A DNA stretch of 64,000 nt from Chiloscyllium plagiosum. Its lineage: Eukaryota. The DNA is taken from NCBI RefSeq assembly GCF_004010195.1, contig NC_057741.1, positions 17,835,899-17,899,898 on the forward strand, given 5' to 3'. Made by a program: the position numbers and the translations under genes. Below are positions 665-64,000 of the stretch, one piece after another. How positions within the stretch are numbered: position 1 is the stretch's first letter; each line of letters starts with the position of its first letter. The notes beneath the pieces are model-generated. The model saw only the letters and a list, made by a program, of their open reading frames with translations, did no database searches and was not told the DNA's origin.

Positions 665-943
665 CATCACCCAACCACCTCGTAGCCCAACACTTTAACT
701 CCCCCTCCCACTCCACCAAGGACATGCAGGTCCTTGGACTCCTCCATCGCCAGACCATGGCAACACGACGGTTGGAGGAAGAGCGCCTCATCTTCTGCCT
801 GGGAACCCTCCAACCACAAGTCCTGAAGAAGGACTTATGACCGAAACGTCGATTCTCCTGTTCCTTGGATGCTGCCTGACTTGCTGCGCTTTTCCAGCAA
901 CACATTTTCAGCTCTGATCTCCAGCATCTGCAGCCCTCACTTT
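665..943 (+). mobile_element. Penelope-like element 3' fragment (family A: GIY-YIG C-terminus plus tail with degraded hammerhead motif)
   Basis: VAQHFNSPSH...RRLEEERLIFCLGTLQP matches the endonuclease end of the copies at 51.7 kb and 30.3 kb. The tail CTGAAGAAGGACTTATGACCGAAACGTC...CAGCATCTGCAG is shared with them. Confidence 0.85.
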
Positions 944-1667
944 ATTTCAAAGACCTTTCATCAGAATCATTCTTCTTTTTTACCCTCATTGGACATTTTG
1001 GAGACTTTTCCTGACAAGGAAATCTATACAAACATGTGCTTAATATTTATCTCATTACTGAAACAAGAAGACAGCATTGTTCTGCATATCTTAAAGGTAA
1101 CTCATGCAATCATGGGCCAAAATTCTGGGCGTGTTACTCTATAGAGATGAGGAACCTTCTTAATGAGTAAAAAGACTGCATCATTTATAGAATCCTTTTG
1201 CCATTTTTTTTTCTATCTTGTGACCCAACATTGAAATGTTATTCTTGGTTTAGTTGTGATTTCTGCTTTGGAAAAGGAGCAGGGGCCAAACTAAACCACT
1301 AGGGCAATAGAAAATGTTTGGGTCTATTTTTTCTACCTATTTTTCCTTCACAGTTTGCATTTATTTTACACTTCTCGTTGTCCTGCCAGATTATCACCTA
1401 CATGGAATTGAGAAAAATCTATGTAATACATCTTTTTTTTTTGGAAGGAGGGGGCTATTTTGCAGATAAGTGCAGGTCACCTGCATTTAAGCAAAGCTGT
1501 ATGCACAAGATTCTGAGTAATATTTGTCCATCTTGATACTTAGATATTTAATAGCAATATCACTTTGGTGCATTATATAGCCAATCAATCCCTTTGAATA
1601 GCAGGGTGAAGTTTTCTACTGTGGGAATATGTAACAAAATAGTAAATACACATTTGCAATTTTTAAA

Positions 1668-3384: not shown

Positions 3385-4862
3385 AGACACAGTGACTGCT
3401 GGAGAAACTCAGCAGAACTGGCAGCATCTGTGGAGATGCTGTTTCAAGTCCAGTATGACTCGTCATCAGAGCTGAAATGGGATAGAAAGTATTTTGGTCA
3501 ATGTTTTTGACAGAGGCAGAGGAGGAGCAAAGGGAGCAGGTGGTGTGGGGACCCAAAACAATGGGTTGCTGATGTTGGCTTCAGAGCTGTAAAATGGGTG
3601 TAAATTAAGGCACAAAAAGAGAGGCCGTGTATCGACTCTACTAAGAATGAAGCAAACAAGACATAAATAAGATAAAGCTGGGGGAGAGGGGATTGTTACA
3701 TCTTGGTCCATTTCTTACACTTCCTCATTCCCCAACAGCATCCTCACATGCCATTGCAGAAGACGTAACACTCATCCACTTGCCTCCTCATTGCTCAAAC
3801 GTACCTTACAGTTAAAGCAGCATTTCATATGTACTTCTTTAATCTAGTCACCTTTATTTACTATTCACATTATGGTCTCCTTTACATTGGCAAGACCAAA
3901 TGCAGACTGAGTAACTGTTTTGTAGAATGTCTCTTCTCTGTCCATAAGAGTGACCCTGGTCTAACAGTTGTTAGCCAGTTCAATGAACCTCCTTGCTCTG
4001 ATGCTAACATTTTATCTTGGGCCAGCATGGTGGCTCAGTCTTGCACACTGCTACCTCACAATACAAGGGACCTGGGTTTGATTCTAGCCTTGGGTGACTG
4101 TGCAAACTCCACACAGACATTCTCCCCATCTCTGCATGGGTTTCTGCTGGGTTTCTTCCCACAGTCCAAAGATGTGCAGGTTAGGTGGATTGGCCATACT
4201 AAGTTATCCCATTGTGTCGAGGGTTGTGTAGGCTAGGTGGATTAGCCATTTGAAATCCAGGTTACAGGGATAGGTGGGAGCCTGGGTCTGGGTGGAATGG
4301 TCTCCGGAGGGTCAATGCAGACTTGATGGGCCAAATGGCTTCTTCTGCACTGTTAAGTAGAATGCAAGCTGGAAGACCAAATACCCCATTTTCTGATGAA
4401 ATACTTTACAGCCTCAAGGATTTGATATTGAATTGTGTAACCTCAGAGACTGATGAAATGCTGTCTGTTGTCCATCTTTCTTCTCCATTATTCTCTCCCC
4501 CATCCCACCACAAGATCTTGTTTACTTTGTTGTCAGTAGAGTGGACACATTCTCTCCCTTACAAACCTCAACTGACAAACCATTTTATGTATCACTTCTT
4601 GTTTTTCACCAACATTAACAATCCTTTGTGTTTGTACTGGGCCTCCACATCAGCCATTCCCTTTTCCCTTCCTGTGGTTCTGTCAAAGGTAATTAAAGAA
4701 AAACACTTTTCCAACTCTTTCAGTTCTGAAGAAGAGGTATACTGATCTTGAAATGTTAACTTTGATTTTCTCTCTCTCCACAGATCCTGTCAGACCTGTT
4801 GAGTTTCACCAACATTTTCTGTGCTTTTTTCAGATTTTCAGCATCTGCAATATTTTGCTTTA
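3385..4862. mobile_element. Old Penelope-like element with an inverted tail copy at its left end; HE1 SINE nested inside
   Basis: GIY-YIG relic GLLYIGKTKCRL in ORF 3829-4236. Tail CTGAAGAAGAGG...GAAATGTT...CAGCATCTGCA at about 4725-4860, with its reverse complement at about 3385-3475. Confidence 0.65.
4020..4352 (+). mobile_element. HE1-type (V-SINE) tRNA-derived SINE
   Basis: GGTGGCTCAGT head, CCACAGTCCAAAGATGTGCAGGTTAGG core, and GGGCCAAATGGC...CACTGT tail. Confidence 0.85.
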
Positions 4863-12214: not shown

Positions 12215-12860
12215 GGGGACCTGGTAGCAGTGGTAATGTCACTAAAGCTAGCCAAGCATAGAATCATAGCATCCGTAAAATGCGGCAAGAGGCCATTCGG
12301 CCCATCCAGTCCGCACCGACCTCCGAATAGTACCCCACCCTATCCCCGGAACCCCAATCCACCTAGTCTGCACATCTTGGACACGACAGCATTCCCAACC
12401 CACCTAACCTGCACATCTTTGGACTGTGGGAGGAAATCCACACAGACATGGGAATGACAAACAAACTCTACATAGACAGCTACCCAAGGCTAGTAACAAA
12501 CCCGGGTCCCTAGCACTGTGAGGCAGCAGTGCTCACCACTGAGCCACCGTTGTATCCAAGCCCAGCATAATGTTCTCGGGGCATGAGTTCAAACCCCATA
12601 CAATGGTGAAACCTGAATTTACCCAAACAGTAAGAAAGACAGGAATGTAGAGCTAGCTTCATGGTGGCCATGTAACCACTGTCAATTGTTCTTAGAAAAA
12701 ACAAAAGTCTGATTTTCTAAAATCCTTCAGAGTAGGATATCTGCTGGTTTACTTGTGACTCCAAATCCTTTGCAATGTACTCAATTCTTAACTGCCCTTG
12801 GGCAATTATGGGTGGACAATCAATACCAATTTAGACAATGGTGACTGCACTGCATCAAAA
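12215..12860 (+). mobile_element. Old tRNA-derived SINE interrupted by an antisense HE1 SINE (about 12258-12550)
   Basis: GTAGCAGTGGTAATGTCACT head, GAGTTCAAACCC B-box and GGGCAATTATGGGTGGACAATCAATA tail surround a reverse HE1 core (ACCTAACCTGCACATCTTTGGACTGTGG). Confidence 0.65.
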
Positions 12861-12899
12861 GGTTTTTTAAAAATGCTGCCCAACCAGTTCACATTTATA

Positions 12900-13070
12900 A
12901 AACAAACACAGAGAATGCTGCAGAAACTCAGCAGCTCTGTTAGCATCAGTGGAAAGAAAAACAGAGTTGTTTTGTTCTGAAAAACAAGTCATACCAGACT
13001 TAAAATGTTGACTGTTTCTCTCTTCACAAAATGCTGCCAGATCTACTGAGTTTCTGTTTGTTTCAAATTT
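12900..13070. mobile_element. Old fold-back (imperfect inverted repeat) of a PLE-type tail
   Basis: GAAACTCAGCAGCTCTGTTAGCATCAGTGGAAAGAAAAACAG pairs with CTGTTTCTCTCTTCACAAAATGCTGCCAGATCTACTGAGTTTC. A decayed CTGA...AAATGTT motif lies in the middle. Confidence 0.55.
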
Positions 13071-13534
13071 GTAACATTGAGTGTTTTGTCTATATATCAT
13101 TTTTAAATTGACATCTCCCAGGTTCATTTGGTGTTTGAATGTTTTCCCTACCTTCCTACTGAGATGTGTTAGATGTGTTTTGGTATCAGAAAGATTGATT
13201 TGCATTTTCTTTCTGACCCCACAGTAGTTCTAAAGAACTTACAGGGATATTGTGGTTTTAAAAAAATAAATACAATGCTGAAGGTATTATTAATTAAAAT
13301 GTGGAGGAAATAATCAACAAGTTAGAAGAGAAAGTTATTGCTTGGAGTTGGATAGAGGTGAAGTAGCCTAATCTTATCAGACCATTAGACTTGAGGGTCA
13401 GAAAAGGAGAATTTCATGACAACCGCAAGTGGTAATAGGAATTAAACCAGCCATCCAGCCAACTGAGCGAAATCAACCCTCTACTGAGTCAAATATATCA
13501 CTTCTGAATTTATACAAGCCTCAGATTATCTCCA

Positions 13535-14497: not shown

Positions 14498-14775
14498 GGG
14501 CGGCACAGTGGTTAGCACCACTGCCTCACAACGCCAGGGACCCGGGTTCAATTCCCGCCTCGGGCAACTATCTGTGAGGAGTTTGCACATTCTCCCCGTG
14601 TCTGCGTGGGTTTTCTCCCACAGTCCAAAGATGTGCAGGTTAGGTGAATTGCCATACTAAATTGTCCATAGTGTTAGGTGTAGGGGAATGGGTCTGGATG
14701 GGTTGCTCTTCGGAGAGTTAGTGCGGACTTGTTGGGCCAAAGGGCCTGTTTCCACACTGTAGGGAATCTAAACTA
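14498..14775 (+). mobile_element. HE1 SINE
   Basis: GGGCGGCACAGTGGTTAGCAC head, GGTTCAATTCCC B-box, V core, CCACACTGTAGGGAATCTAA tail. Confidence 0.92.
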
Positions 14776-14778
14776 ATT

Positions 14779-15070
14779 GGGTGGTATGGTGGCTCAGTGG
14801 CTAGCACTGCTGCCTCACAGCACCAGGGTCCCAGGTTTGATTGCAGCCTTGGGCGACTGTCTCTGAGAAGTTTGCACATTCTTCCCGTGTCTGCATAGGT
14901 TTCCTCCCACAGTCCAAAGATGTGCAGGTTAGATGAATTGGCCATGCTAAATTGCCCATAGTGTTAGGTGCATCAATCAAACAGAATAGGTCTGGATGGG
15001 TTACTCTTCAGAGGGTTGGTGTGGACGTGTTGGGCCGAAGTGCCTGTTTCCACACTGTAGGGAATCTAAT
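14779..15070 (+). mobile_element. HE1 SINE (second of a tandem pair)
   Basis: Same head, core and tail immediately following the first copy. Confidence 0.92.
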
Positions 15071-17226
15071 CCAAGGAGGGGAACCATAAGTTTTAGTTGC
15101 ATCACCTTTTATTCTTCTAAACTCTCATGAATATAGGCTCAATCTCCTCAATCTCACAGAGCAGTCTTGCCATCTGAGGAATTAATCTGGTGTACTGCCA
15201 TTACACCGCTCTATGACACATATATCCTTTATAAGGTAAGGGGATCAAAACTGTATACAGTACTGCAGATAGAAACTTACTAAGGTTCTATCAAGGTAGT
15301 GCAAGACATCTTTACAGCTATACTCACCCAATACAGCTATACTCACCCAATGACAACCACACATGCACATTCCCTTGTTCTGACTGCTATTATCTCTCAA
15401 GCTCATGAGCAGTGAAGCCAATTGTCACACTCCAACACCTTTCCATGCTGCTTGTAGCAATTCCCGTAGGTGGTTGATCACCTTCTCTCATGCTGAAAAA
15501 CAGGAGATTAGGAGATTTAATAACAGAGAACATTTGAATCTCAATCTGTGGTTTTGCCTTTGCATTCTATGAAGAGGCACCTGGGTTCTTCTTGCAAACA
15601 TCCCATAGTGGTAGATGGGCTCAGGTCTCCACTTCATAGGAGGTTGGTGTTGATGCTTTGCCAGGCCTAAAATTACCATTGTTTTATTTGTACATTTTTA
15701 TACATTTTATCAGCATACTAACTGACCTAAAAGTTATTTGTTTAATAATTAACAAGGCCATTAAATGAACTTAAGTTAAATTGAAACAATAAATGGGCAG
15801 GTAAGAGGGGATGGAAGTAAACAGCACCTGAACATCCACATGTGCACATTTCCCTTGTTCTGACTACTGTTATCTCTCAAGATAATGATCCAAATCTGTT
15901 TTGAAATAAAATGAACATGCCATTAGAGTCAAAGACAATTTTGTTTATTGTTTTAGGAAGAGATCATTTCAAAAAAGCAAGATATTTACTGAACATACTT
16001 CATTTTTTAGAGAGCATATCCAGTGACAATAAGCAAAGCCTTGTTGCTAAATGCTGAGAAGGAAATTAGAATCAATTATGGTGGACCTGGAATTTGCCTT
16101 TGTAATTAGGGAAAAATAGTCAATGATCAAGTCAATAGTCAAGATTATGTACTGTCGATAACAACTTCTGGTCTCTGCATGTGTGTAGCTAAATACAGAA
16201 ACAGTAAAGTTTCTGTTGGAGACGCTTGTCCTGTCTCCACACGGTAAGGCTGTTGCAGGTGCAGTTAGCACAGGACTAGTAATTTTGCTTTAACTTTGAT
16301 ATTTTAAGCTCTATTCTCATTTAAGTCAAAAAAAATGTTAAAGCTAGGGCTTGTTGAACAAAGTACAACTCTTAAGCGTTCTAAGCCACCATGGTTGATT
16401 TTCATCTGAATTTTGAGTTTTCATTTGTGTATGATATTATTTATTATTATCTGCCATGCCCACTGCCTTTCCTTTAGCAATACATTCCATTATCTTGGGA
16501 GCCAATGAAATACTTTATTTTGAAATGTGGTTTTAGTATTGTCACCTCGGAGAACTCAGTTATTCTTTACAAGTGCCGGTTTAAACTGACAAATCCAAGC
16601 CAGCTGTTCTTAATTAACCCCCATTGTTCTGGGTGACCTGTGAATCTATGTGGTCAGAAGCTTATTCAGGATCAGTGTTTTGACCAATTATTCTGTAGTT
16701 CCCTGTTTTATTGCTTTATTTCCTTTTTTTTGCATTCACGGCATTATGTCAACCCTGACCAATCCTCTGACATCACTACCAAATCAACATTAACATTTGG
16801 AAGATTATAGTCCAAGCCTTTGCTCTTTTTTTGAATGCACTTCATTGTAACCATTGGAGCCCAAGCATTTTCGACTTTGTGTTCCACCACTTATTTTAAT
16901 TTTCCTTCCTTATCCATGTTTCTCTTTCGTAAACTGCTCTACCATCTCCTGTTGGTCTTCATTTTCAGCACTACAGTCTGTATATAACATCACAACTCTG
17001 TTGTGACACAAAAGTCTACTACTGGATTATAGAAAATAATTAAATACATAATTAATTAAAACACGTTAAGAATAGCAGAATAGGTGATGTGTCACACCTG
17101 CAATCTGCGGGAACTCCTAGAGGCCAGTGTGATTCAGGACAAATGAATCTAAGTAAGGTAAATAAAGCTCGAGCTGCTTCACCTTCGAATTTGAGCTGGA
17201 TGCTGAATTACAATCACTGCAACCAA

Positions 17227-30300: not shown

Positions 30301-31029
30301 GGAGAAAGTGAGGACTGCAGATCAGAGTTGAGAGTGTGGTACTGGAAAAGCACAGCAGGTCAGGCATCATCCAAGAAGCTGGAGAATCGACATTTCAGGC
30401 AAGAGCCCCTCCTCAGGAATGAGGCTCGTNNNNNGAGGGCAATGCTGAGTTGGAAGGTTAGAACTGGGATAAGGTGGGGGGAAGAGAAATGAGGAAACTG
30501 GTGGTCCACATTGATGCCCTGGGGTTGGAGGGTCCCAAGACGAAAGTTTAGACATTCCTCCTCCAGGCATCAGGTGGTTAGGGTGTGACAATGGAGGAGG
30601 CCCAGGACCTGCATATACTTGGCAGAGTGGGAGGGGGAGTTGAAATGTTCAGCCATGGGGTTGGTTGGTGTGGGTGTCCCAGAGACGCTCTCTGAAGTGC
30701 TCTGCAAGCAGGCATCCTGTCTCCCCAATGTACAGAAGACTATGTAGGGAGCAACAGATACGGTAAATGATGTGTGGAGGTGCAGATAAAACTCTGATGG
30801 ATGTGGAAGGCTCCTTTGGGGCTTGTATGGTGGTGGGGTGAGGAGATGTAGGCACAGGTTTTGCAATTCCTGCAATGGCAGAGGAAGGTGGGTTGGTGGG
30901 GCACATGGACATGACAAAAGTTGCGGAGGGAATGATCTTTATGGAAAGCAGATGGGGGGAGAAGGGAAATATATCTCTGGTGGTGGGGTCTGTTTGTAGT
31001 GGCGGAAATGGCGGAGGATGATGCGCTGT
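30301..31029 (-). mobile_element. Penelope-like element 3' fragment, family A
   Basis: IIYRICCSLHSLLYIGETG GIY-YIG motif and CHCRNCKTC linker. Tail with CTGAGGAGGGGCTCTTGCCTGAAATGTC. Confidence 0.88.
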
Positions 31030-37322: not shown

Positions 37323-38081
37323 TTACTTGTGAAGTCTCTGATGTTTCTGCAGGTGTGATGACTGAATGAATCCCTTCCCACAGGCTAAACAAGTGAATGG
37401 CCTCTCCCCACTGTGAACTCGCTGATGTATCAGTAGGTGGGATGAAGTAATGCATCCCTTTCCACACTCAGAGCAGATAAATGTCTTCTCCCCAGTGTGA
37501 ACCTGCTGGTGTGTCAGCAAGGTGGATGAACGAGTGAATCCCTTCCCACAGACTGAGCAAGTGAATGGCCTCTCCCCAGTGTGAGTGCGCTGATGGGCCA
37601 GAAGTTGCTTTATACTTTTAAAGCACTTCTGACATTCAGAGCAATGAAAAGGTCTCTCCTCTGTGTGAACTTGCTGGTGTGTCAGAAGCTCAGATGACTG
37701 AATGAAGCCTTTGCCACATGCTGAGCAGGTGAAAGGCTTCTCTCCAGTGTGAATTCGCCGGTGTCTCTGAAAGTTGGCTGACTGGGTGAATCCCTTTCCA
37801 CATACAGAACAGGTATATGGAGTTTTACCAGTATGAACTCGCTGGTGTCTCCGAAGGCTGGCTGATTGAGTAAAACCTTTCCCACAGTCGCAACAGGTAA
37901 ATGGTCTCTCTCCAGTGTGAATTCGTTGGTGTGTCAAAAGGCTGGATCTCTGTGTAAATTCTTCCCCACAAGCCAAGCAGCTGAATGGTCTCTCCCCAGT
38001 GTGACTGCGTCGATGATTTTCTATCTGGGATGGGTAACTGAATCTCTTCCCACAATATTCACATTTCCATGGTTTCTCCAT
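37323..38081 (-). CDS. C2H2 zinc-finger protein with 9 tandem Kruppel-type fingers and no effector domain visible (252 aa)
   Basis: Open frame [14 protein letters not shown]...HQRLHK with nine CxxC-12-HxxxH units and TGE(K/R)P-type linkers. The track's upstream start is a GTG; the first in-frame ATG is 38081. Splice acceptor CTCCTTTTACAG at 38277-38266. Confidence 0.92.
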
Positions 38082-39005
38082 ATTGGGGTTGCGTTGTCCT
38101 TCTCCAAGACTTATAATCAGTTGAAGACTGACCCACACATATTACACATGTATTCCTTTCTGCTATGATTGGCATGATGCTTTTTCAGATTGCATGGTTA
38201 GTTGAAATACTTCTTTCACATTCAAAGGCTGATGGCATTCAGGTTCTGAAGAATCGCGTAACGCCCTGTAAAAGGAGTTTACAAAAACTATCATTTTCAG
38301 TCTAAGGACCGAAATTTATGAGATTCTCTTCTCCTGCTTCCTGGTACATGATGGCTGTGCAATTGCCCTGTGGCGCACTGCCGACAGATGTTACAATGTG
38401 CTTTGCTGCATACTGATCTCTGTAAAAATGACAACCACTCTATTTTTGTTCCTTTTTACATTTTGATTCCTGGCATTTGTATAACTCAACTTTCCCTTAT
38501 TATGTTTCTGAAAGACATACTAAGTAAGTTTAAATGCCCAAAATATGAAGAAGCAATGTAAAAAAAGATAGACTTTATCACATTTCCATTTTTAAAAACA
38601 AAAGAAGTGTAAAATGGTTAATGCCAATATTTGTGGTAAAACATCCGGTACTTGATATTGTATTTATTTTAAAAATAAGTTTCAATGGGAGACCTTTTCA
38701 GTGCAATGATTGGGTTGTTATTTCAAGTCACTTCCTGTAAATAATAAACATTTGCTGATTGGCTGTTGTGGCATGGAATGTTTTTAATATAACATAAAAT
38801 CGAGGAGTGGCATCAAGCACAAAGGGGATCATGAGAGAAATTCTACCTTTGCAGGCAATGTATAAATTAACTTCATCGATGTTTAATATTATAAGTGTTC
38901 TGTTTAAAGTTTCTATTAAAATTATATGAATTATTGTATATCTACACATGTATGTGCAAAGGATCCTTGTTCAGTGATTGAGCAGATGTTGGCCCACAGG
39001 GAAGA

Positions 39006-39196
39006 CAGAGTTGAAAAATGTGGTGCTGGAAAAACACAGCAGGCCAGGCAGCATCCGAGGAGCAGGAGAATCGACGTTTCGGGCACAGCCCAAAATGTCG
39101 ATTCTCCTGCTCCTCGGATGCTGCCTGGCCTGCTGTGTTTTTCCAGCACCACATTTTTCAACTCTGGTACTCCAGCATCAGCAGTCCTCACTTTCT
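39006..39196. mobile_element. Fold-back PLE family A tail insertion (79-bp arms) with a 15-bp TSD
   Basis: 39006-39084 pairs with 39088-39166 with 2 mismatches. CCACAGGGAAGACAG occurs at 38994-39008 and 39197-39211. Confidence 0.92.
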
Positions 39197-40587: not shown

Positions 40588-40682
40588 GCCACAACCACCT
40601 GATGAAGGAGCAGCACTCGAAAAGCTAGTGCTTCCAAATAAACCTGTTGGACTATAACCTGGTGTTGTGTGATTTTTAACTG
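40588..40682 (+). mobile_element. Family C tail (probably PLE-derived) with a mutated hammerhead motif
   Basis: CACCTGATGAAGGAGCAGCACTCGAAAAGCTAGTG...CCTGTTGGACTATAACCTGGTGTTGTG; homologous to 45856-45952. Confidence 0.75.
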
Positions 40683-41136
40683 ACATACCTCGTCCACTTT
40701 TATGCTGTTTCCCTGTAACTCTGGATTCCCTTACTGATCAAGGATCTATTTTATCTATTAAATATGTACAAAGACTCTATCCCCACAGCTCTATGTAGCA
40801 AGGAGCTCAAAAGACTCTTTAAAGGAAGAAATTCCTCCTTGTCTGAGTCTCAAACTGGTGCCACTTTATTCTGAGACTATGCCCTCTAACCCTAGACTGT
40901 CCCAAGAAGGGAAACATTCTCTCTGCATTTACCCTGTCACACCCTGAATATTCTGTTCTTTTGTTCTCCCTTCCAAACTAAATAACTTTTTACTGTTAGT
41001 GTTCATGCTCAATCTACTTTCAAAATATATAGCAACGATGTGGAGGTGCTGGTGTTGGACTGGGGTAGCCTGCGCCTGATGAAGCGGCTGTGCTCTGAAA
41101 GCTTGTGTGATTTCAAACATACCTATTGGAATATAA

Positions 41137-41950
41137 GGCAAAAGTGAGTACTGCAGATGCTGAAGATTTGAGTCAAGAGTGTGGTGATGGAAAAACTCAG
41201 CAGGTTAGGCAGCATCCGAGCAGCAGGAAAAATCGAGATTTCAGGCAAAGCCCTTCATCAGGAATTAGGCTGAGAGCCTCAGGAGTGGAGAGATAAATGG
41301 GACAGGGATGGGGCTGGGGGGAAGGTAGCTGAGAGTGCAATAGATGGATGGAGATGTGGTAAAGGTGATAGGTTGGAGGGGAGGGTGGAGCGGATAGGTG
41401 TGAAGGAAGATGGACAGATGGGGCGGGTCATGAGGAAAGTTCTGAGCTGGAAGCTTGGAACTGGGGTAAGGTGGAGGGAGGGGAAATGAGGAAACTGGTG
41501 AAATCCACATTGATGCCATGGGGTGGAGGGTCCAGTGGTAAGGGAGTGGTGGTGGAAGAGGCCCAGGACCTGCATGTCCTTGGCAGAGTGGGAGGGGAGT
41601 TGAAGTTTTCGGCCATGGGCGGTGTGGTTGAATGGTGCGGGTGTCCCAATGTTTTCTGAAGCGTTCTGTACGTAGGCGTCCTGTCTCCCCAATGTAGAGA
41701 CCGCATCTGGAGCAATGGATACAGTAAATGACGTGTGGAAGTGCAGGTGAAACTTTGATGGATGTGGACAGTTCCTTTGTGGCCTAGGATGGGGGGGGAG
41801 GGAGAAGGTTGGGAGGCTTGGGCACAGGTTTTGCAATTCCTGTAGTGGCAGCAGGAGGTGCCAGGACAAGAAGGGGAGGATGGGTTGTTGGGGGTGGACC
41901 CGACGAGGTACTTGCGGAGGGAACAGTCTTTATGGGAAGTGGAGGGTAGG
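41137..41950 (-). mobile_element. Penelope-like element 3' fragment, family A, inserted into a family C tail
   Basis: Frameshifted GIY-YIG region and family A tail. TSD T(A/G)TTGGAATATAA at 41124-41136 and 41951-41963. Confidence 0.88.
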
Positions 41951-42399
41951 TGTTGGAATATAACCTGATGTTGCGTGACCTGACAAAATCTATAGAGTTT
42001 AGTTAACCTACATTTTGTGGGGCCTCTTCTGATTCTGCAAGTGATGTTTTGTTGAGTTTTCCACCTCCTGATGCTGCCTGGCTCTGTGTTCTTCCAGCCT
42101 CCAGGTTATCTACTTTGGATTCCAGCATCTGAAGGTTTTTCTTGTCTGTTAAGTACTGCTTTTGTTGCATGTATCTAATATTTCACAATCCAATTTTAAA
42201 AATGTTTGTTTAGTGTACAGATTGAACAATGTTATGACCAAAGGGCCACCCATGTATTTAACCCGAGCACACCCGCAAAATACCCCCGTTTCACGAACAA
42301 TTATCATTCAAATCTGCTTCAAAGGCTCTTTTCCTCCAAGCATGGCTCGCTGCTTTCGTTCTTCCAATCCCTACAACTCAAGCAAAACGATTATCATTG

Positions 42400-43170: not shown

Positions 43171-44929
43171 TTGTTTTTCGAAGTATATTTTCCATCTCAA
43201 AGTTTTTTCCTTGATTTATTTTCACTTTCAACCTATTTCCGAGTTTTGTTTATTAAGTTGGGTGCAAAAAGCAGATATGGTTTACTTCCATTAAGGCCTT
43301 ATATTACAGAAGAAGTGTAGGTTGATCGAGAAGCTAACTTGACGTTCAACATAATTTATGACTCACGCTCAATTAGTAAACACCTCTGTTAGGTTTACAG
43401 CAGAACGCTAGGGAATGCATTGCAGAGCTTTTAAGAGTTTATTTTAAAACCCAGAGTAGTTCAATATAATTTGAATGCTGCATGGGGTGGACGCTACCTT
43501 GTCTATTTTGCTGTATTACAATGGTGTATAGCGCTGAGTCAGCTATAGTGAATGTGCTGCTTCAACAGCACATGGTTCTTTAGTTTTTACTTTTGCACAC
43601 TCTGCTTTCTCTCAATATTGTGCATTGTAAATCGCTGTCTGAAAAAAAAGTAGCTCATCAAATCAAACATGAATAAAGGAATGAAGGATCAATATAACCC
43701 AAACTTTGTTCTTTCATTCCATGCTAATATCGAAGAATCCCTCCAGTGTAAAAATAGGCCATTTGGCCTATCAAGTCCACAGTGATTCTCTGAAGAGGTG
43801 TGACCATGGAACATAGGAGCAGATTTTTTTTATCTGAGAGTTTTGGAGGATGATAAGTAAACAGGGCTTAGTGTCAGCAAGGACAAAGTTGATGATGAAA
43901 ATGTTGAGAAACCATATTTGCGCAAGTATCAGTTCGTCTGATGTAAACTCAATGCTTCACATCTGTTTAAAATATTCATCTGTTTTTCTCACATGTTCTG
44001 TATAGGTCAACCCCTATCCTTTAGCCAAAGAGTCCCATCTGCTTATATTTACCATAGTGCACACTGTTGAAATCAGAATTGCCCTGGTACAAATCTACTT
44101 GTACTACAAATAGAATAGTATGTTCTTGAAGTCAGCTATTTAGCTCCTAGGCTGATAGGCTAGCCCATTATCAAATTAGACATTGGTGATATGCTCAGTC
44201 TAAGACAGGATTGTAATAACAAAATAGAGTTTCTGCTAGAAGCAAAATAAAAACTGGTTTGATTTTCCTAATATCTTATTGGGATGCAAGACTTAACAAT
44301 GTAGGTGCAGGAGGAAAAACAATTGCAGGAGTTTATCAGACTCCAGGTAGATTGGCAACAATAAAACCAAGTGAGGACAGTCCCATTAAACTGGACATTA
44401 GAGAGGAAACTGAAGAATATGACATTGCTGTTCGAGTCAAAGACTACTGATTGGTTAAGGAGGCATGGTGTACTGTGGTCATTCTCACAATGTCATTTCT
44501 GGTTGCTTTAGCATTTTTTACTGCTGTATTAATATCGGAGGTTTGAATGTGAAGTTGTGGGAAAGGTGGGCACAGATTTGATGTGATAATTGTCTGAAGA
44601 AAAGTCTTATCAAACTCAAAAAGTTAACTTCGTTTCTCACCACAGATGCTGTCAGATCTGCTAAGTTTGTCCAGAACATTTTTTATTTCAGATTTCCAGC
44701 ATCTGCAGTACTTTTTTTATGTGAATGTGAGATTGAACAGTTCAGTAGTTGCAGAAGTACATAGTGTGTGAATGTCTAGGTTATGGTTCATGGAATCTTT
44801 AATTTTGGGAACTAAAGCATTTCAGTAGAAAATGTGTGAAATGCAATTGAGGAGCATTAAAGTGTAGTATGTTTGAACAGTTGAGGTAATTTCACTTTGA
44901 GGTTGCCTTTTTTGTTTCATGGAATCACA

Positions 44930-45174: not shown

Positions 45175-46205
45175 TGTTTTTAGAGGTAAAGTTAAATTAA
45201 TTCAGATACATTCAGGAAACTCCTCAGGCTGAAACACCTATTAGCTCAGAACAAGCTATGTTGTCATGGAGATGGATGGACTTGGCATATTTTAGATTTC
45301 AGGTTAACTAGGTGTGCTTTTCCTGGGAGAGTGCTGAGGTAATGAAATGGCTTAAGGCAGCATGGGTGTTGCTGTTAGACTCCAAGCAGTTATGGCAGGA
45401 GAAGTCTATGGAAGTTAATATGAGACTGGGGTCAAGAAGCCACAAGCACTATTTGATTCATGCAGTTGAGAGAGACCACAGAGGTTTTGTTAGCTTAATG
45501 AAGCAAACTGTCTTGGAAAAAGCTAGAATTGATGCTGTAGTGCAATTCTGGGCATCCAGTAGAAGAGATTAAACCACCTAGGTGTGAGTGGTCGTTGATG
45601 GACTCTGATGGAATGACTTTTAAGGAAGATTTAAAGCCAGAGCATTGAAAGTGATGAATTGGAATCCTTTGTAAAGGCGAAAATGTTTTTAATGAAATTT
45701 GGTGACTGTGTCACTGGTTGCTAAGAAATATGTGGAATCTGTCTTGACCACATTTGCAATTTGATGTGCTTCATAGAGTGCTTTGACAACTGTCTGTCTC
45801 CCCTCATTTATTTCAGGTTAGGTCTGGTTGTTAAGAGTATATATCAAATACATTGTGTTAAAAATCTCACAACACCAGGTTATAGTCCAACAGGTTTAAT
45901 TGGAAGCACACTAGCTTTCGGAGTGCTGCTCCTTCATCAGGTGATTGTGGCTTAAGCCGGCAGTTAGTGGTGTCGATAGTAGTCATGATTTGGCGAGGCA
46001 TCTCCAAATCATATATATTGTGTGTTGTGCAACTATTCTAACTTTATATCATCAAGTTTATTTAATTTGTTCAAAAACAGTGGATCATTGTGGCTTTATT
46101 CTGTTACTAAGTGTCTGAGATCTGAAATTTTTTCTACTTTTTAGAAAAGTTATTGGTTTTTTTGCAGATCATAACATAAATTTGGTCTCATCCAGGATCA
46201 TAACA
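45175..46205 (+). mobile_element. Possible old solo LTR with a family C tail nested at 45856-45952
   Basis: Ends in GGATCATAACA like the other LTRs; the 5' boundary is uncertain. Confidence 0.4.
45909..45943 (-). ncRNA. Minimal type I hammerhead ribozyme motif (family C)
   Basis: CAC-CUGAUGA-A-GGAG-cagca-CUCC-GAAAG-CUA/GUG: intact core, stems I and II, palindromic AGCU stem III. Confidence 0.75.
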
Positions 46206-50301: not shown

Positions 50302-50553
50302 GGTGGTTAGCACTGCTGCCTCACAGCGCCAGAGACCCGGGTTCAATTCCCGCGTGGGTTTCCTCCGGGTGCTCCGGTTTCCTCCCACAATCCAAAGATG
50401 TGCAGGTCAGGTGAATTGGCCATGCTAAATTGCCCGTAGTGTTAGGTAAGGGGTAAATGTAGGGGTATGGGTGGGTTGCGCTTCGGCGGGGCGGTGTGGA
50501 CTTGTTGGGCTGAAGGGCCTGTTTCCACACTGTAAGTAATCTAATCTAATCTA
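50302..50553 (+). mobile_element. HE1 SINE, internally deleted
   Basis: Nearly identical to 56046-56360; (AATCT)n tail. Confidence 0.9.
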
Positions 50554-51707: not shown

Positions 51708-52390
51708 GGGAAAATGAGGTCTGCAGATGCTGGAGGTCAAAGTTGAAACTGTATTGCTGGAACAGCACAGCAGGTCAGGCAGCATCCAGGGAACAGGAGA
51801 TTCGACGTTTCGGGCACAGGCCCTTCTTCAGGAATGAGCAGAGAGTGTTCAGCAGGAGAAGATAAAAGGTAGGGAGGAGGGACATGGAGGACCTCCTCCG
51901 ACCGTCGGGTTGTTGTGGTTTGGCGGTGGATGAGTCCAATGACCTGCATATCCTCGGTGGAGTGGGAGGGGGAGTTGAAATGCTGTGCCACAGGTTGGTT
52001 GGGTTGGTTCGTCCGGGTGGCCCAGAGGTGCTCTCTGAATCGCTCCGCAAGTAGGCGGCCTGTCTCCCCAATATAGAGGAGGCCACACCGGCTGCAGCGG
52101 ATGCAGTAGATGATGTGGGTGGAGGTGCAGGTGAATCTGTGGCGGATATGGAAGTTTCCTTTGGGGCCTTGGAGAGAAGTGAGGGGGGAGGTGTGGGCGC
52201 AAGTGTTGCACCTCCTGCGGTTGCAAGGGAAGGTGCCGGGAGTGGTGGTTGGGTCGGTGGGGGGTGTGGATCTGACAAGGGAGTCGCGGAGGGAGTGGTC
52301 TCTACGGAAAGCTGATAGGGGAGGGGAGGGAAATATATCCTTGGTGCTGGGGTCTGTTTGGAGGTGGCGGAAGTGACGGCGGATGATGCG
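51708..52390 (-). mobile_element. Young Penelope-like element 3' fragment, family A (Neptune-like Cys linker plus GIY-YIG)
   Basis: PCNRRRCNTC...IIYCIRCSRCGLLYIGETGRLLAERFREH; CpGs retained; flanked by TGGGAGA on both sides. Confidence 0.92.
51800..51835 (-). ncRNA. Minimal type I hammerhead ribozyme motif (family A)
   Basis: AUUC-CUGAAGA-A-GGGC-cugu-GCCC-GAAAC-GUC/GAAU: intact core, perfect 4-bp stems I and II, palindromic ACGU stem III. Confidence 0.78.
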
Positions 52391-56045: not shown

Positions 56046-56360
56046 TTTAGATTTAGATTAGATTACAGTGTGGAAACAGGCCCTTCGGCCCAACAAGTCC
56101 ACACCGACCCGCCGAAGCGCAACCCACCCATACCCCTACATTTACCCCTTACCTAACACTACGGGCAATTTAGCATGGCCAATTCACCTGACCTGCACAT
56201 CTTTGGATTGTGGGAGGAAACCGGAGCACCCGGAGGAAACCCACGCAGACACGGGGAGAATGTGCAAACTCCACACAGTCAGTCGCCTTAGGCGGGAATT
56301 GAACCCGGGTCTCCGGCGCTGTGAGGCAGCAATGCTAACCACTGTGCCACCGTGCCGCCC
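56046..56360 (-). mobile_element. Young full-length HE1 SINE
   Basis: Complete head, B-box, V core and (AATCT)n tail; CpGs intact. Confidence 0.93.
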
Positions 56361-56777
56361 ACAAATGCTTGCAATTTAGTTAAGAAATCATAACTGAGTT
56401 AACTGTGAGATTTCACAGCAAGTGTGTCTGTCAAGAATATTGCTGGGAAAAGGGTTGAATCTTTTTGCTGTTTATGTTAAGATCTTCCAAAATGGTCATA
56501 AGCTTATTTGCTTGCATTATTTTACTTTGCGCAATATACTTATGTTCTTTACTGGATCAGTATGTTCAATGACTGACCGCCACTGCTACAAAATTGTAAA
56601 ATTAAAACTTGCACTTGTCAAGTCATGTTTTACTCTATGATCTGACTTTTCCAGTATTACCATCGTTTAGGATTACAACAGTAATGTTCAATAAGTTATG
56701 CAATAGATAACAATATTTCAGGAAAGAAAAGTTGTTGTTTTCTCAACACTATGTAATCATAATTCCTTAGTAACATT

Positions 56778-57993: not shown

Positions 57994-59497
57994 GTTGTGG
58001 TTCTGTTCGCCAAGCTGGAAGTTTTTGTTGCAAACGTTTCGTCCCCTGGCTAGGCGACATCATCAGTGCTTGGGAGCCTCCTGCGAAGCGCTTCTTTGAT
58101 GTTTCCTCTGGTGTTTATAGTGGCCTGTCCCTGCCGCTTCCGGTTGTCAGTTTCAGCTGTCCGCTGTAGCGGTTGGTATATTGGGTCCAGGTCGATGTGT
58201 TTGTTGATGGAGTTTGTGCATGAATGCCATGCCTCTAGGAATTCCCTGGCTGTTTTCTGTCTGGCTTGCCCTATGATAGTAGTGTTGTCCCAGTCGAATT
58301 CATGTTGCATGAATTCGACTGGAACAACNNNNNNNNNNNNNNNNNNNNNNNNNNNNNNNNNNNNNNNNNNNNNNNNNNNNNNNNNNNNNNNNNNNNNNNN
58401 NNNNNNNNNNNNNNNNNNNNNNNNNNNNNNNNNNNNNNNNNNNNNNNNNNNNNNNNNNNNNNNNNNNNNNNNNNNNNNNNNNNNNNNNNNNNNNNNNNNN
58501 NNNNNNNNNNNNNNNNNNNNNNNNNNNNNNNNNNNNNNNNNNNNNNNNNNNNNNNNNNNNNNNNNNNNNNNNNNNNNNNNNNNNNNNNNNNNNNNNNNNN
58601 NNNNNNNNNNNNNNNNNNNNNNNNNNNNNNNNNNNNNNNNNNNNNNNNNNNNNNNNNNNNNNNNNNNNNNNNNNNNNNNNNNNNNNNNNNNNNNNNNNNN
58701 NNNNNNNNNNNNNNNNNNNNNNNNNNNNNNNNNNNNNNNNNNNNNNNNNNNNNNNNNNNNNNNNNNNNNNNNNNNNNNNNNNNGACATATCTGATCCAGA
58801 GTTTGGGTTGAATTTGTGGTAGGACTGTTTGTTCTCACCTTTGCATAACTGCCTCTGCTATTAGTCCCGAGATTGGTGATCCCATGGGTGTTCCGTTGAT
58901 TTGTTCGTATATCTGGTTGTTGAATGTGAAGTGTGTTGTGAGGCACAAGTCCAGTAGTTTAAGTATGCCATCTTTGTTGATAGGTTCAACGTCCTGTTGT
59001 CTGTTCTGTATGTCCAGTAGGTTGGCTATTGTTTCTCTGGCTAGGGTTTTGTCAATCGAAGTGAACAGTGCCGTCACGTCGAATGATATCATGGTTTCTT
59101 CTTTGTCTATGTGTATATTTCTGATGCACGCACGCAGACAACAAGCAACATGAATTCGACTGGGACAACACTACTGTCAAAGGGCAAGCCAGACAGAGAA
59201 CAGCCAGGGAATTCCTAGAGGCATGGCATTCATCCACAAACTCCATCAACAAACACATCGACCTGGATCCAATATACCAACCACTACAGCAGACAGCTGA
59301 AACTGACAACCGGAAGCGACAGGGACAGACCACTATAAACACCGGAGGAAACATCAAAGAAGCGCTTCGCAGGAGGCTCCCAAGCACTGATGATGTCGCC
59401 TAGCCAGGGAACGAAACGTTTGCAACAAAACTTCCAGCTCGGCGAACAGAACCACAACAACGAGCACCCGAGCTACAAATCTTCGCACAAACTTTGA
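57994..59497. mobile_element. Penelope-like element, family B (Penelope/Poseidon-like), with inverted ends and a 12-bp TSD
   Basis: RT motifs SFDVTALFTSI and GTPMGSPISG on the minus strand. EN end REFLEAWHS in both orientations. ATGGGAATATCT at 57982-57993 and 59498-59509. Confidence 0.9.
58030..58069 (-). ncRNA. Minimal type I hammerhead ribozyme motif (family B)
   Basis: GCA-CUGAUGA-U-GUCgCCU-agcc-AGGgGAC-GAAAC-GUU/UGC. Other copies at 59384-59423 (+) and 63492-63531 (-). Confidence 0.72.
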
Positions 59498-59705: not shown

Positions 59706-59803
59706 GTTTTGAAGACATCAGTGGATCATAGTGTGCAAAATATGGAGAACAACGTTCAGGACATTATGGAAATAAAAAAGATTTCCATTCAGAAAGATCC
59801 AGA
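59706..59803 (+). CDS. ELMOD2: ELMOD2 third coding exon (98 nt)
   Basis: VLKTSVDHSVQNMENNVQDIMEIKKISIQKDP versus mammalian VLQKATHV...VDDIMKEKNINPEKD. TTGTTTAG acceptor and GTAAGT donor. The gene continues beyond the window. Confidence 0.9.
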
Positions 59804-59909
59804 GTAAGTGTGTGTTAAATTCTTGAAATATTGTGGTCGTTTAGTTTTACTACCCATTTAAACTCTTTACTGTTCTGGTGGATCTTTGTACATGTAAAGG
59901 CTCAGAAGT

Positions 59910-60100
59910 TGCTAGGCAGATGCTAGAAATCTGAAATATAAACGGAAGTTTATATGTTAGAAGTACTCAATAAGTCAGGCAGCATTTGTGGAGAGAGAAT
60001 GTTAATGTTTCAGGATAGTGACCTTTTGAGCAAAACATTAACTCTGTTTCTGTCTCACAGACACTCCCTCACCTAATGACATTTCCAACAACTTCTTTAT
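59910..60100. mobile_element. Old fold-back PLE-type tail
   Basis: TGTGGAGAGAGAATGTTAATGTTT pairs imperfectly with AAACATTAACTCTGTTTCTGTCTCACA. Confidence 0.45.
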
Positions 60101-61071
60101 ATGTGAGTCTAAACAGTATCCACATGCATATTTTCAGCAGTAGTCACCAGCTAAGACTGAGGAGTGGGGATTTTGTTTCTCTTTTAGTTCTTCTTAATTG
60201 CTGCATTGTAATGCCCTCCCTAAAGATGAGTAACTTCTCACAAAGCAAGGATGGAGCATATAGCTTAGGAATATGCCGCATGTGCATTTACTCAGCTTTA
60301 TTGCATTCATTTATCTATTTACCACCCCTTCTTGTAAAGTTGATTATTTGAGGTACGATTGCTTGGATGCTGATTATTGTCCACACATTACCCAAGTGGC
60401 TGTTCATTATGTGAATCTAGGTGGTGACTGAAAGTAGATAATTTGGCCGTGAGAACATTACAAAACTGCTTATCTGACATCCTAATGCTGCACATGTTAC
60501 TGGATAGCAATGAAAATTTATCCAATCTGCTCTCTCTCATACAGGCACCTGCCATTTCCCCAGACCTAAAATTTTGCTATTTCAACGCACAGCCCGAATT
60601 AGAATAAAATAAACATTAATACTCCAGATGTTTCCAATTCTGAAGTAAACCTTATTCTGAATGAACCCTGGCATATGTAAGTCAGAAATAACAATGGACC
60701 TGATTCTCTTAAAGTTTGTGAAACCTGAATTGGGTTGCTTTCTGAAGAGTTTCATTGCCATTTCAACTTCAGATATTTTAATATCAGTGCTTGTCCAAGC
60801 CACCTTATTTAAGTATGAAGTTAAGGTTAATGCAATAACAATCTTTGTTGCAGTTAATGAACTCCAGTATATTCAACCAAACTTTTAATTTATTCTTGAT
60901 TTTAAATAATGTGCTGAACATGATGGTTACTGTGCCACCTGGGAACAGTATTCATTGACAGACGGTTGGATACCAAAGAGTGCTAGCTCTTGGGCATCAT
61001 CCCTGCTGTGGTATTTGATGGGGAGGAGAAAGAGTCAAAGTATGTGGCTCCTTGGAGTATATGTTAACTAT

Positions 61072-62378
61072 TTCCAATCCTCCCACTTCCTCCAAACCAA
61101 AGGAGTAGCCATGGGCACCCGCATGGGCCCCAGCTATGCCTGCCTCTTCGTAGGATATGTGGAACAGTCCATCTTCCGCAGCTACACTGGCATCACCCGC
61201 CACCTTTTCCTCCGCTACATCGATGACAGTATCGGCGCTGCCTCGTACTCCCACGAGGAGGTTGAACAGTTCACCCACTTTACCAACACCTTCCACCCCG
61301 ACCTCAAATTCACCTGGACCGTCTCAGACTCCTCCCTCCCTTTCCTAGACCTTTCCATTTCTATCTCGGGTGACCGAATCGACATGGACATCTACTGTAA
61401 ACCGACCGACTCCCACAGCTACCTAGACTACACCTCCTCCCACCCTGCCCCCTGTAAAAACGCCATCCCATATTCCCAATTCCTTCGTCTCCGCCGCATC
61501 TGCTCCCAGGAGGACCAGTTCCAAAACCATACAACCCAGATGGCCTCCTTCTTCAAGGACCGCAATTTCCCGCCAGACGTAGTCGACGATGCCCTCCACT
61601 GCAAGTCTTCCACTTCCCTCTCCTCTGCCCTTGAGCCCCACCCCTCCAACAGCCACCAGGACAGAACCCCACTGGTCCTCACCTAGCACCCCACCAACCT
61701 CCATGTACAATGTATCATCCGCCGTCATTTCCGCCACCTCCAAACGGACCCCACCACCAGTGATATATTTCCCTCCCCTCCCCTATCAACGTTCCGAAAA
61801 GACCACTCCCTCCNNNNNNNNNNNNNNNNNNNNNNNNNNNNNNNNNNNNNNNNNNNNNNNNNNNNNNNNNNNNNNNNNNNNNNNNNNNNNNNNNNNNNNN
61901 NNNNNNNNNNNNNNNNNNNNNNNNNNNNNNNNNNNNNNNNNNNNNNNNNNNNNNNNNNNNNNNNNNNNNNNNNNNNNNNNNNNNNNNNNNNNNNNNNNNN
62001 NNNNNNNNNNNNNNNNNNNNNNNNNNNNNNNNNNNNNNNNNNNNNNNNNNNNNNNNNNNNNNNNNNNNNNNNNNNNNNNNNNNNNNNNNNNNNNNNNNNN
62101 NNNNNNNNNNNNNNNNNNNNNNNNNNNNNNNNNNNNNNNNNNNNNNNNNNNNNNNNNNNNNNNNNNNNNNNNNNNGGCCTATCACCCTCACCTTGACCTC
62201 CTTCCACCTATCGCATTTCCAACGCCCCTCCCCCAAGTCCCTCCTCCCTACCTTTTATCTTAGCCTGCTGGACACACTTTCCTCATTCCTGAAGAAGGGC
62301 TTATGCCCGAAACGTCGATTCTCCTGTTCCTTGGATGCTGCCTGACCTGCTGCGCTTTTCCAGCAACACATTTTCAGC
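61072..62378 (+). mobile_element. Penelope-like element family A with partial RT and tail, 14-bp TSD (contains an N gap)
   Basis: GVAMGTRMGPSYA...FLRYIDD...LPFLD...KPTD...SQFLRLRRICS. TATATGTTAACTAT at 61058-61071 and 62379-62392. Hammerhead motif at 62285-62320. Confidence 0.92.
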
Positions 62379-62965
62379 TATATGTTAACTATGCTGAGTT
62401 TTTGACCTATCTAGTTTTTGCAAGAGATTCACAATTTCTCTACATAGCAATACAGTTGTGGGATGAGTCGCGAGGAAACTCAGCCTATTAGTTTAATGTG
62501 TTGTGGGAAAGTAAAGAGAACCTGTAATTAGGGATAGTGACCTAGCAATTAGGCAAGTATGGCTCTGTGATTAGTACAATGTGGGCTCAAAGGGAAAGTC
62601 CTGACCAACAAAATTAGTTGCATTTTATTTCTTTGAGAAGAAAACATGGCAAATGAGGGAAAATCTATGGATATTATTTGTGTGAATTTTCAGAATTCAT
62701 TTGGAAAATTTTCATAACAAACTCTTAACAGAATTAAGAATGCATGTTGTAAGAGTTAACCATTTGACATGAGTAAGGCATCATTGATAAAGTAACATGC
62801 AGAGGATGAAACGAGTAGGTTTGTATTCATATTGGCAAGCTATTTTTATGCATTGTGCATGTGGGCTTTGCTTGCTTGGGCAGGATTTATTGTCCATCTC
62901 TAATTGAGAAAGTGGTGATGAGCCTGTCTACTTGAATCATTATGATCCATTTTGGTTAGGTATGC

Positions 62966-64000
62966 TGTAATGTACTAGGCCAGACCACTCAAAACATTCT
63001 TAAGCAGGCAGTTGAGGCCATAACGTTGCAATTTGTTTCGGTAAATTTACAGTGAAAATCACCCAGAGTAAGTTAGCGAGGTTGACTACTAGGTTAAAAA
63101 CAGACAAAACTTTATGCACAAAATTACACATTGAAATACAAAGAATAGAATAAAGAACCCCTACAGAACTCAGTCCATCCAAACTAGACTTAATTATACT
63201 ATTCCGAATGCACACAACAGTCCCTATAAGCAAACTCCCTTAGAAACCAGTATAAATGAATGGAACAGATGCTTATAGGTTGAAGGTAGAAGGGAGAGAG
63301 AGAGAGAGAGAGATTGGTTCCACACAGCTCATTGTTGAACTCCCAACTAGTTCTGGACAAAACTGAACTGCTCAGCTAGAGAGCTGACCATTCCCCTTTC
63401 ATTATACGACTCACATCCAAAGTTTGTGAGAAGATTTGTAGCTCGGGTGCTCGTTGTTGTGGTTCTGTTCGCCGAGCTGGAAGTTCTTGTTGCAAACGTT
63501 TCGTCCCCTGGCTAGGTGACATCCTCAGTGCTTGGGAGCTTCCTGTGAAGCGCTTCTGTGGTGTTTCCTCCGGCATTTATAGTGGCCTGTCCCTGCCGCT
63601 TCCGGTTGTCAGTTTCAGCTGTCCGCTGTAGTGGCCGGTATATTCGACTGGGACAACACTACCATTATAAGGCAAGCCAAACAAAGAACAGCCAGGGAAA
63701 TCCTAGAAGCATGGCACTCATCCACAAACACATCGACCTGGACCCAATATACCAGCCACTACAGGCCAGGGGACGAAACGTTTGCAACAAAAACTTCCAG
63801 CTCGGCGAACAGAACCACAACAACTCACATCTAAAACATGACCACTTTGGCCTGAAGTCTGATCTGCTTACATATAAACAAAAAGGCCTCTCAATACCCT
63901 TTAATCTCTGTGCCAAACCAGACTAATCGGCACCGAGAACTGTTTATTACTCCTCTGAAACAAACCAAGGATGTAGTATCCTTGAGAAAACTTACAGCTT
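62966..64000 (-). mobile_element. LTR, truncated by the window end, hosting a PLE insertion
   Basis: TGTAATGTACTAGGCCAGACC start and an internal (GA)n run, organised like 2027-2703. Confidence 0.6.
63418..63822. mobile_element. Short family B PLE insertion with inverted ends and a 9-bp TSD
   Basis: Tail on the minus strand (63418-63644) joined to a plus-strand copy (63645-63822). ACTCACATC at 63409-63417 and 63823-63831. Confidence 0.88.

Follow-up and report, generated by a model that had tools for sequence, protein, structure and literature searches.

What are the hammerhead-like repeats scattered over this window, the 64,000 nucleotides of DNA analysed here, which elements carry them, and do they still cut? 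An initial annotation had described three repeat families, A, B and C, as sharing one minimal hammerhead design. Here, we find that the motifs very probably represent the minimal type I hammerhead already published for Penelope-like elements (PLEs), located here in PLE terminal repeats within a shark-type genome, and that most copies are decayed, solitary, and likely no longer cut. The evidence comprises the anatomy of the motifs, covariation across families, RT and GIY-YIG remnants beside families A and B, TSDs, inverted two-ended copies, and damage to cores and stems.

Anatomy and enrichment of the hammerhead motifs

The best copy, a family A motif on the minus strand (51835-51800), reads AUUC, CUGAAGA, an extra A, stem II (GGGC-CUGU-GCCC), GAAA, CGUC, and GAAU, with a predicted cleavage site after C51804. 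The coordinates first reported for it and for eight other named copies are correct, and all nine are present. CUGANGA, a single extra base, GAAA, and an NUH site are kept in 9/9, but the claim that all copies keep every feature holds in only four (51831, 45940, 58066, and 63528). The 4-nt palindrome is perfect in seven of the nine, the exceptions being two family A copies, 30416 (AUGU) and 41261 (AUCU). Stem I has at least three contiguous pairs in six (62289, 30416, and 41261 have 2 bp and then U.U), and stem II has at least three in seven (all but 823 of family A and 59387 of family B). Under the published loop limit, complete copies drop to 2/9, since the fourth stem II pair of family B is a purine mismatch. 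The best copy does carry all features, but its stem I 3' arm, GAAU, is a minority variant; GAUU occupies this arm in six of seven family A copies or halves within the window, so that the majority stem I is merely 2 bp plus U.U.

The initial annotation did not list the C-like copies 41076 and 40599 (the latter broken), nor a fourth family, E, nor the half copies at 39009-39196 and 63765 that lack a core. Across the 13 core-bearing copies, NUH is in register in 11. Excluding 40599, which is out of register, pair 10.1-11.1 is G-C in seven of 12 copies and G.U in the remaining five, while the 15.2-16.2 pair, which lacks a loop III, is Watson-Crick in eight, U.G in two, and broken in two.

To set these motifs against expectation, we scanned for cores with 0 or 1 extra base and a loop III of 0-4 nt, using block-wise dinucleotide shuffles as the control. 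The window holds five loop-less cores with stem II of at least 3 bp, compared with a shuffle mean of 0.06 (max 2; n=200), and all five require the extra base between 9 and 10.1. The 2014 published descriptor (PMC4209133), re-coded for this analysis with a loop II limit of 10 or 12, gave three matches (loop II ≤10) and five (loop II ≤12) against 0.003 per shuffle (max 1; n=300). With helices I and II of 3-7 bp and loop II ≤10, the matches are 51831 (A), 45940 (C), and 4726 (E); family B passes only with loop II up to 12. A covariance-model scan, also proposed at the outset, did not recover the motifs: Rfam models gave no hammerhead match in the window at E up to 10. An Rfam mir-2756 match, under its gathering score, is the 39009-39196 palindrome and was rejected.

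Covariation of the stems

We anchored 12 copies on the core boxes, leaving out 40599 (out of register). In these, 84 of 96 pair cells pair. When arms are swapped, pairing is kept in 201/240 cells within families and in 364/816 (45%) across families. Pair 2.1-1.1 is C-G, A-U, C-G, and U-A in families A, B, C, and E, respectively, and pair 10.2-11.2 is G-C, U-A, G-C, and A-U. The stems thus covary across families, as the initial annotation had expected, although this is partly circular because families A-C were picked for their stems. Family E, found via its core and homology, is the cleaner case: since A and E are homologous downstream of the ribozyme, the differences between their stems are compensatory.

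Family A lies in Neptune/Nematis-type elements

51800..51835, minus strand: family A minimal type I hammerhead with all features, predicted cut after 51804
51711..52390, minus strand: 5'-truncated Neptune-type PLE copy with linker, GIY-YIG remnant, pseudo-LTR (pLTR) with hammerhead, and long tail end
62285..62320, plus strand: family A hammerhead of the majority type, stem I of 2 bp, U.U, and 1 bp
61072..62378, plus strand: 5'-truncated family A copy with RT remnant; pLTR stops at the short end; 14-bp TSD at 61058 and 62379
670..951, plus strand: family A copy, endonuclease-end fragment and pLTR stub from 821; hammerhead 819-854 with A.A mismatch in stem II
30385..30420, minus strand: decayed family A hammerhead, G.U at 10.1-11.1 and AUGU for ACGU
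41137..41952, minus strand: family A copy with decayed hammerhead 41231-41265, palindrome lost; 11-bp TSD at 41126 and 41953, inside a C-like stub
39009..39196, no single strand: palindromic insertion of two family A pLTR halves placed back to back, both lacking the CUGANGA core; 15-bp TSD

The ends of copy 51711..52390 are approximate, and it has no convincing TSD; copy 61072..62378 contains an assembly gap (61814-62175). The hammerhead at 30385..30420 sits at the end of an endonuclease remnant that extends to about 31028. Copy 670..951 is flanked by a 12-bp TSD (658 and 952) within an opposite-strand family E hammerhead. Its endonuclease-end fragment abuts a stub that starts at stem I (821), with the usual spacer missing; this junction is either a deletion or a template switch at the RNA 5' end.

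In the family A window copy, a C-x4-C-x2-C zinc-finger linker precedes the GIY-YIG endonuclease, and the frame scores 23.1 bits against Pfam GIY-YIG (cut-off 22.6). The endonuclease has 25 homologues, the closest named relatives being shark/ray proteins (56-75% identical), and the linker occurs in 19 of the 23 endonuclease-bearing homologues among these 25 hits. The RT remnant of copy 61072-62378 is 40% identical to a 902-aa RT+GIY-YIG protein; a PDB search with it returned no match, and metagenome scans for A-type and C-type patterns returned none each. A CX2-5CxxC linker ahead of the endonuclease is given for Neptune and Nematis (PMC8557442). Together, the linker and the C-terminal GIY-YIG domain support placing family A in the pLTR of a Neptune/Nematis-type PLE. 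Family A shares with these EN+ PLEs a C-terminal GIY-YIG with CCHH residues, the linker, and 5'-truncated, inverted copies tailed at one end (PMC8557442). Unlike the reference elements, it is known here from window copies of which none is full-length, and the assignment covers Neptune and Nematis jointly.

An AUG 18 nt past the family A cut (62335 and equivalents) opens a frame, MLPDLL..., that is conserved in family E and is possibly the family A ORF start; a search for proteins beginning with this frame found none.

Family B carries a putative start codon inside the core

57994..59497, no single strand: family B insertion with inverted copies; RT remnant 58784-59140 (minus), endonuclease C-terminus; 12-bp TSD
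58030..58069, minus strand: family B hammerhead, matching the descriptor when loop II may reach 12
59384..59423, plus strand: family B hammerhead with two adjacent stem II mismatches
63418..63822, no single strand: another inverted family B insertion, flanked by a 9-bp TSD; half copy lacking the core from 63765
63492..63531, minus strand: family B hammerhead, matching the descriptor when loop II may reach 12

Insertion 57994..59497 has its short end on the left (+67 from the AUG described below) and its long end on the right (+105), with a gap at 58329-58783. Five Chiloscyllium punctatum proteins match its RT remnant at 88-95% identity, pointing to a host akin to bamboo sharks, and the endonuclease C-terminus is 83% identical to protein P0027; it has no match in P0028, which is without that part. 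The linker is found in none of 22 endonuclease-bearing family B homologues (among 120 listed of 173 hits). This absence, along with likeness in layout to PAc, the Poseidon element of Anolis carolinensis (PMC11167929), supports labelling family B a Penelope/Poseidon-type PLE.

In all three family B copies, an AUG is formed by A9, the extra U, and G10.1, and its reading frame is that of the P0028 N-terminus. The predicted cut falls 28 nt after this AUG, and a TATAAA lies 59 nt before it. The frame upstream of the core AUG terminates in loop II; a further-upstream in-frame AUG exists in one of the three copies and in P0028. Cutting of family B RNA would part the putative start AUG from its ORF. 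According to PMC11167929, the PAc ORF starts at the beginning of stem II, as the putative family B ORF would; the cut lies about 25-28 nt downstream of this start in both elements, and both have two ends that differ by a 30-40 nt tail within an AC-rich stretch. The ends of family B are at +67 and +105, compared with a main start 111-118 nt into the ORF for PAc. PAc cleavage was assayed in vitro and is protein-assisted (PMC11167929), whereas family B is known from sequence and compared by layout only.

Families C and E and the signatures of insertion

45857..45951, minus strand: family C stub of ~95 bp; hammerhead 45909-45943, AGCU palindrome, CUA site, all features
40588..40680, plus strand: family C stub sharing 93% identity with 45857-45951; break where stem II meets GAAA
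41071..41136, plus strand: diverged C-like stub (77% to C); hammerhead 41071-41109, AGCU, CUU site
4722..4761, plus strand: family E hammerhead matching the descriptor, with AUGU as its decayed palindrome; the pLTR that follows shares homology with A
3434..3473, minus strand: decayed family E hammerhead, palindrome and cut site lost

No adjoining ORF or TSD was found in the window for the stub at 45857..45951. The C-like stub 41071..41136 is split by a family A insertion and resumes at about 41953-41978. Family E is further represented by a split copy at 964 and by decayed remnants, and its homology to A downstream of the ribozyme assigns it to a PLE pLTR. The initial proposal that these are PLE minimal hammerheads in terminal repeats is therefore supported for A and B, and by analogy a PLE origin is likely for C.

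TSDs of 9-15 bp flank six of the ten elements tested, with none found for the other four. Inverted pairs with one short and one long end were seen in both B insertions (tail ~38 nt) and in the A palindrome 39009-39196, where the short end is on the left and the long end, on the right, has about 32 nt more. Inverted copies with short and long tailed ends are a PLE signature (PMC8557442, PMC11167929).

Two family A insertions (658-963 and 41126-41963), each with a TSD, sit inside other hammerhead-bearing repeats: the one hit the core/stem II of an E-type motif, the other the C-like stub, in its tail. According to a review, existing copies and their immediate surroundings are favoured sites of PLE insertion. 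Decayed E-like pLTR remnants lie at 59900-60075, 12880-13080, 44560-44740, and 42070-42134, and the first two resemble inverted pairs.

A published design in several shark families

The initial annotation left open whether these families had been described. The design itself is not new; the window holds several shark PLE families with a known design. PMC4209133 reports a base between 9 and 10.1, G10.1-C11.1, and a palindromic 15.2-16.2 as recurrent features, and its supplement gives the consensus NNN CUGANGAH GNNNNN..NNNNNC GAAAN palindrome NUH NNN. The minimal hammerheads of that study share with ours CUGANGA plus one base, the G-C start of stem II, GAAA, the loop-less palindrome, and NUH. 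ACGU is common there, AGCU with a CUA site occurs in a shrimp element and a schistosome family, and stem I is 2-5 bp, with 2-bp helix I cases also shown. The extra base, for which that paper cites De la Pena and Flores 2001, belongs to the published PLE consensus, so the analogy first drawn with the CChMVd viroid is not needed. Such motifs occur in Neptune and Poseidon elements of fishes at thousands per genome, in many families of mostly solitary copies (4,000 in coelacanth, 9,000 in Xenopus), and showed no monomer cleavage and poor dimer cleavage (PMC4209133). Our families differ in that the family A majority has U.U in stem I and the family B purine mismatch in stem II fails the strict descriptor; the copy load here may also be larger than those published.

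No description of a shark hammerhead was found in the literature searched, although Lunse et al. 2017 or Repbase may list shark families. This covers the PMC4209133 supplement, whose file 2 has no shark term, and the available parts of PMC8557442, PMC7229834, PMC6155905, and bioRxiv 10.64898/2026.07.22.740005; the last, as far as its text was available, sampled one chondrichthyan genome, and its supplements may bear on the point.

Family A in sequencing reads

Four runs were aligned to positions 62180-62420 (241 bases) at 82% likeness, so that the following concerns family A only; one of them, X24, gave no matching reads and has no bearing on what follows. Matches numbered 103,710 contig records (X5, judged DNA), 16,552 (X18), and 3,089 reads (X23, RNA, both strands), where records are not copy numbers. 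These counts support a very large family A motif load in the genome, as the initial annotation had inferred from the window. That load, however, is one of motif-like DNA rather than of demonstrated working ribozymes, because the majority of copies carry damage and stand alone; the number of motifs is thus no measure of how many ribozymes work.

Contig depth is not copy number either, and the variants and loose ends below are those in the rows listed, beyond which lie 58 variant and 592 loose-end rows. Position 62319 is mostly U; the A that completes a 4-bp stem I, as in the best copy, accounts for 3.6% (X5 depth), 11% (X23 reads), and 18% (X18 depth). Under the same species label, RNA reads thus show this A more often than DNA contigs do (11% compared with 3.6%), but the other listed variants behave likewise, and the two measures are not comparable. 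CpG-type changes at C11.1, G12, G16.2, and C17 reach 6.5-9.2% of X5 depth and 16-19% of X23 reads, which fits decay of the copies once inserted; a comparison of window copies with one another shows only a weak CpG excess (0/8, 1/8, and 3/8 CpG sites, compared with 3, 8, and 13 of 85 others). The free position N7 is the most variable of the listed core positions (12% X5, 42% X23).

Depth rises sharply across the front edge of the ribozyme, 4.8-fold in X5, 7.1-fold in X18, and 7.7-fold in X23, compared with only 1.02-1.04-fold across the cut site (X5). Among the rows listed, loose ends accumulate at 62283-62286 with near-random flanks (agreement 0.31-0.39), and fold-back joints likewise cluster at 62280-62285. 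The X23 RNA reads show no pile-up of starts or ends; this is a single-cell poly(A) library, sampled at 2% and unsuited to cleavage ends. A head-to-tail joint (62378 -> 62286, a 93-nt stub) occurs in four X5 contigs and one X18 contig. Such a joint would place two hammerheads in tandem elsewhere in the genome, but may be an assembly-graph effect.

Folding and pairing

The loop-less stem III cannot close within one molecule, and its palindrome can instead pair with a second copy. The modelled duplex is weak (ACGU -1.7 kcal/mol; AGCU -2.5 kcal/mol), and designed dimers are predicted to lie 5-12 kcal/mol above the minimum-energy fold in 5/5 cases. In context, the predicted probability of pair 2.1-1.1 is 0.01 for 62289 and 0.27 for 51831 (both family A), and the family C copy is predicted to misfold (P(10.1-11.1) 0.07). 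The passing copies have no same-strand core within 3.9 kb, and we therefore read the window copies as relics; the nearest same-strand cores among the 13 core-bearing copies are 477 bp apart, and both are damaged. An apparent strand bias of intact copies (minus strand in 4/5 passing compared with 3/8 others) was rejected (p=0.18).

What the ribozyme may do, and alternative explanations

Published work suggests that in an active parent element, two motifs would pair via the 4-nt palindrome and, helped by protein, cut after NUH. The element's own RT would copy its RNA from the pLTR end towards the 5' end. Since the majority of family A copies end where stem I begins, at its first base and thus upstream of the cut, the template RNA would have been uncut. 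It likely begins at that base, though the front-edge pile-up could instead be an RT stop. In PAc, cutting occurs only with the element protein, and the RNA used for insertion in vitro is mainly uncut (PMC11167929). Cutting would strip the RNA front (about 31 nt in A, and in B also the AUG within the core), and so would act on translation or RNA fate rather than on template making. Taken further, this leads to a reading that we hold only tentatively and consider doubtful, in which the shark PLE ribozyme serves as a switch for self-decapping: transcripts begin with the first hammerhead base, pairing between RNAs through the palindrome cuts off the capped leader or the B start codon and so ends translation, and only uncut RNA is copied into the genome. 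Pairing might possibly take place on a dimeric RT, and possibly across families that share ACGU. If this were true, the many genomic stubs would be a fossil map of the RNA start.

It is improbable, in our estimate, that the motif persists because of some function other than catalysis (as promoter, start codon, RT binding site, or RT stop), with the hammerhead fold a mere remnant or parasitic on the element. In its favour, mutating the PAc ribozyme leaves insertion in vitro normal, with no reads ending at the PAc cut (PMC11167929), and Naiad PLEs thrive without canonical hammerheads (PMC8557442); moreover, the B core overlaps an AUG below a frame that stops in loop II, and the majority family A stem I is weak. 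However, four families with different stems retain the catalytic boxes and compensate their pairs, the free N7 varies most among the listed core positions in family A reads, and PAc does cut when helped by protein (PMC11167929). Less probable again is that the short stubs (C, E, and short A) are non-autonomous retrozyme- or SINE-like families spreading via ribozyme-cut, possibly circular RNA. Animal non-LTR retrozymes carry type I hammerheads and are related to or derived from pLTRs, as here, with dimer-type cleavage in amphibians (PMC7229834; bioRxiv 10.64898/2026.07.22.740005), and the preprint counts them in one chondrichthyan genome. The C copies, at about 95 bp with matching ends and no ORF, would fit, as would the head-to-tail joint in contigs. 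Yet retrozymes form tandem arrays of canonical motifs (PMC7229834), whereas the window copies are dispersed and minimal, with none of the 13 core-bearing copies in tandem; the stubs also still carry the stretch preceding the cut, which would be missing from a cut monomer, and the A and B stubs grade into ORF-bearing copies.

We regard it as very unlikely that intact copies cut host pre-mRNA in cis, including as cross-family pairs via the ACGU of A, B, and E, so that the load affects host expression. ACGU is indeed common to A and B, family A sequence does appear in X23 RNA reads of both strands, and B 59387 and A 62289 lie on the same strand 2.9 kb apart, but both of these are damaged, and the ACGU duplex is worth only the modelled -1.7 kcal/mol. 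Published minimal motifs cut poorly even as dimers, and eight of nine frog retrozyme dimers stayed uncut; the strand bias of passing copies is not significant (p=0.18), and no host gene is established. A search for host exons gave 29 candidates, mostly inside repeats by eye. Chance matching has a negligible probability: the window does contain 28 loose CUGANGA...GAAA matches, many without stems, but none of 300 shuffles equals the observed descriptor count, and the matches fall at the same place in repeat families.

PLE-borne minimal hammerheads that have mostly decayed thus remain our preferred explanation. The hammerhead is near-universal in PLEs yet dispensable for insertion in vitro. With several very abundant families in one genome, the positions of copy starts with respect to the cut can be read statistically from nature, and the natural variants (GAAU or GAUU in stem I, AUG in the core) are material for bench tests.

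Other repeats in the window

A stretch bounded by AG...GTAAGT on the plus strand (59707-59804) may be a host exon. At 37328-38108, seven overlapping matches with 84-nt spacing lie inside a 272-aa minus-strand frame (37323-38141); its 28-codon period suggests a putative C2H2 zinc-finger array. Copies of a SINE-like repeat that resembles the shark HE1 SINE were found at 14499-15075, 50303-50550, 56063-56361, and 12372-12559, two of them 99% complementary over 184 nt.
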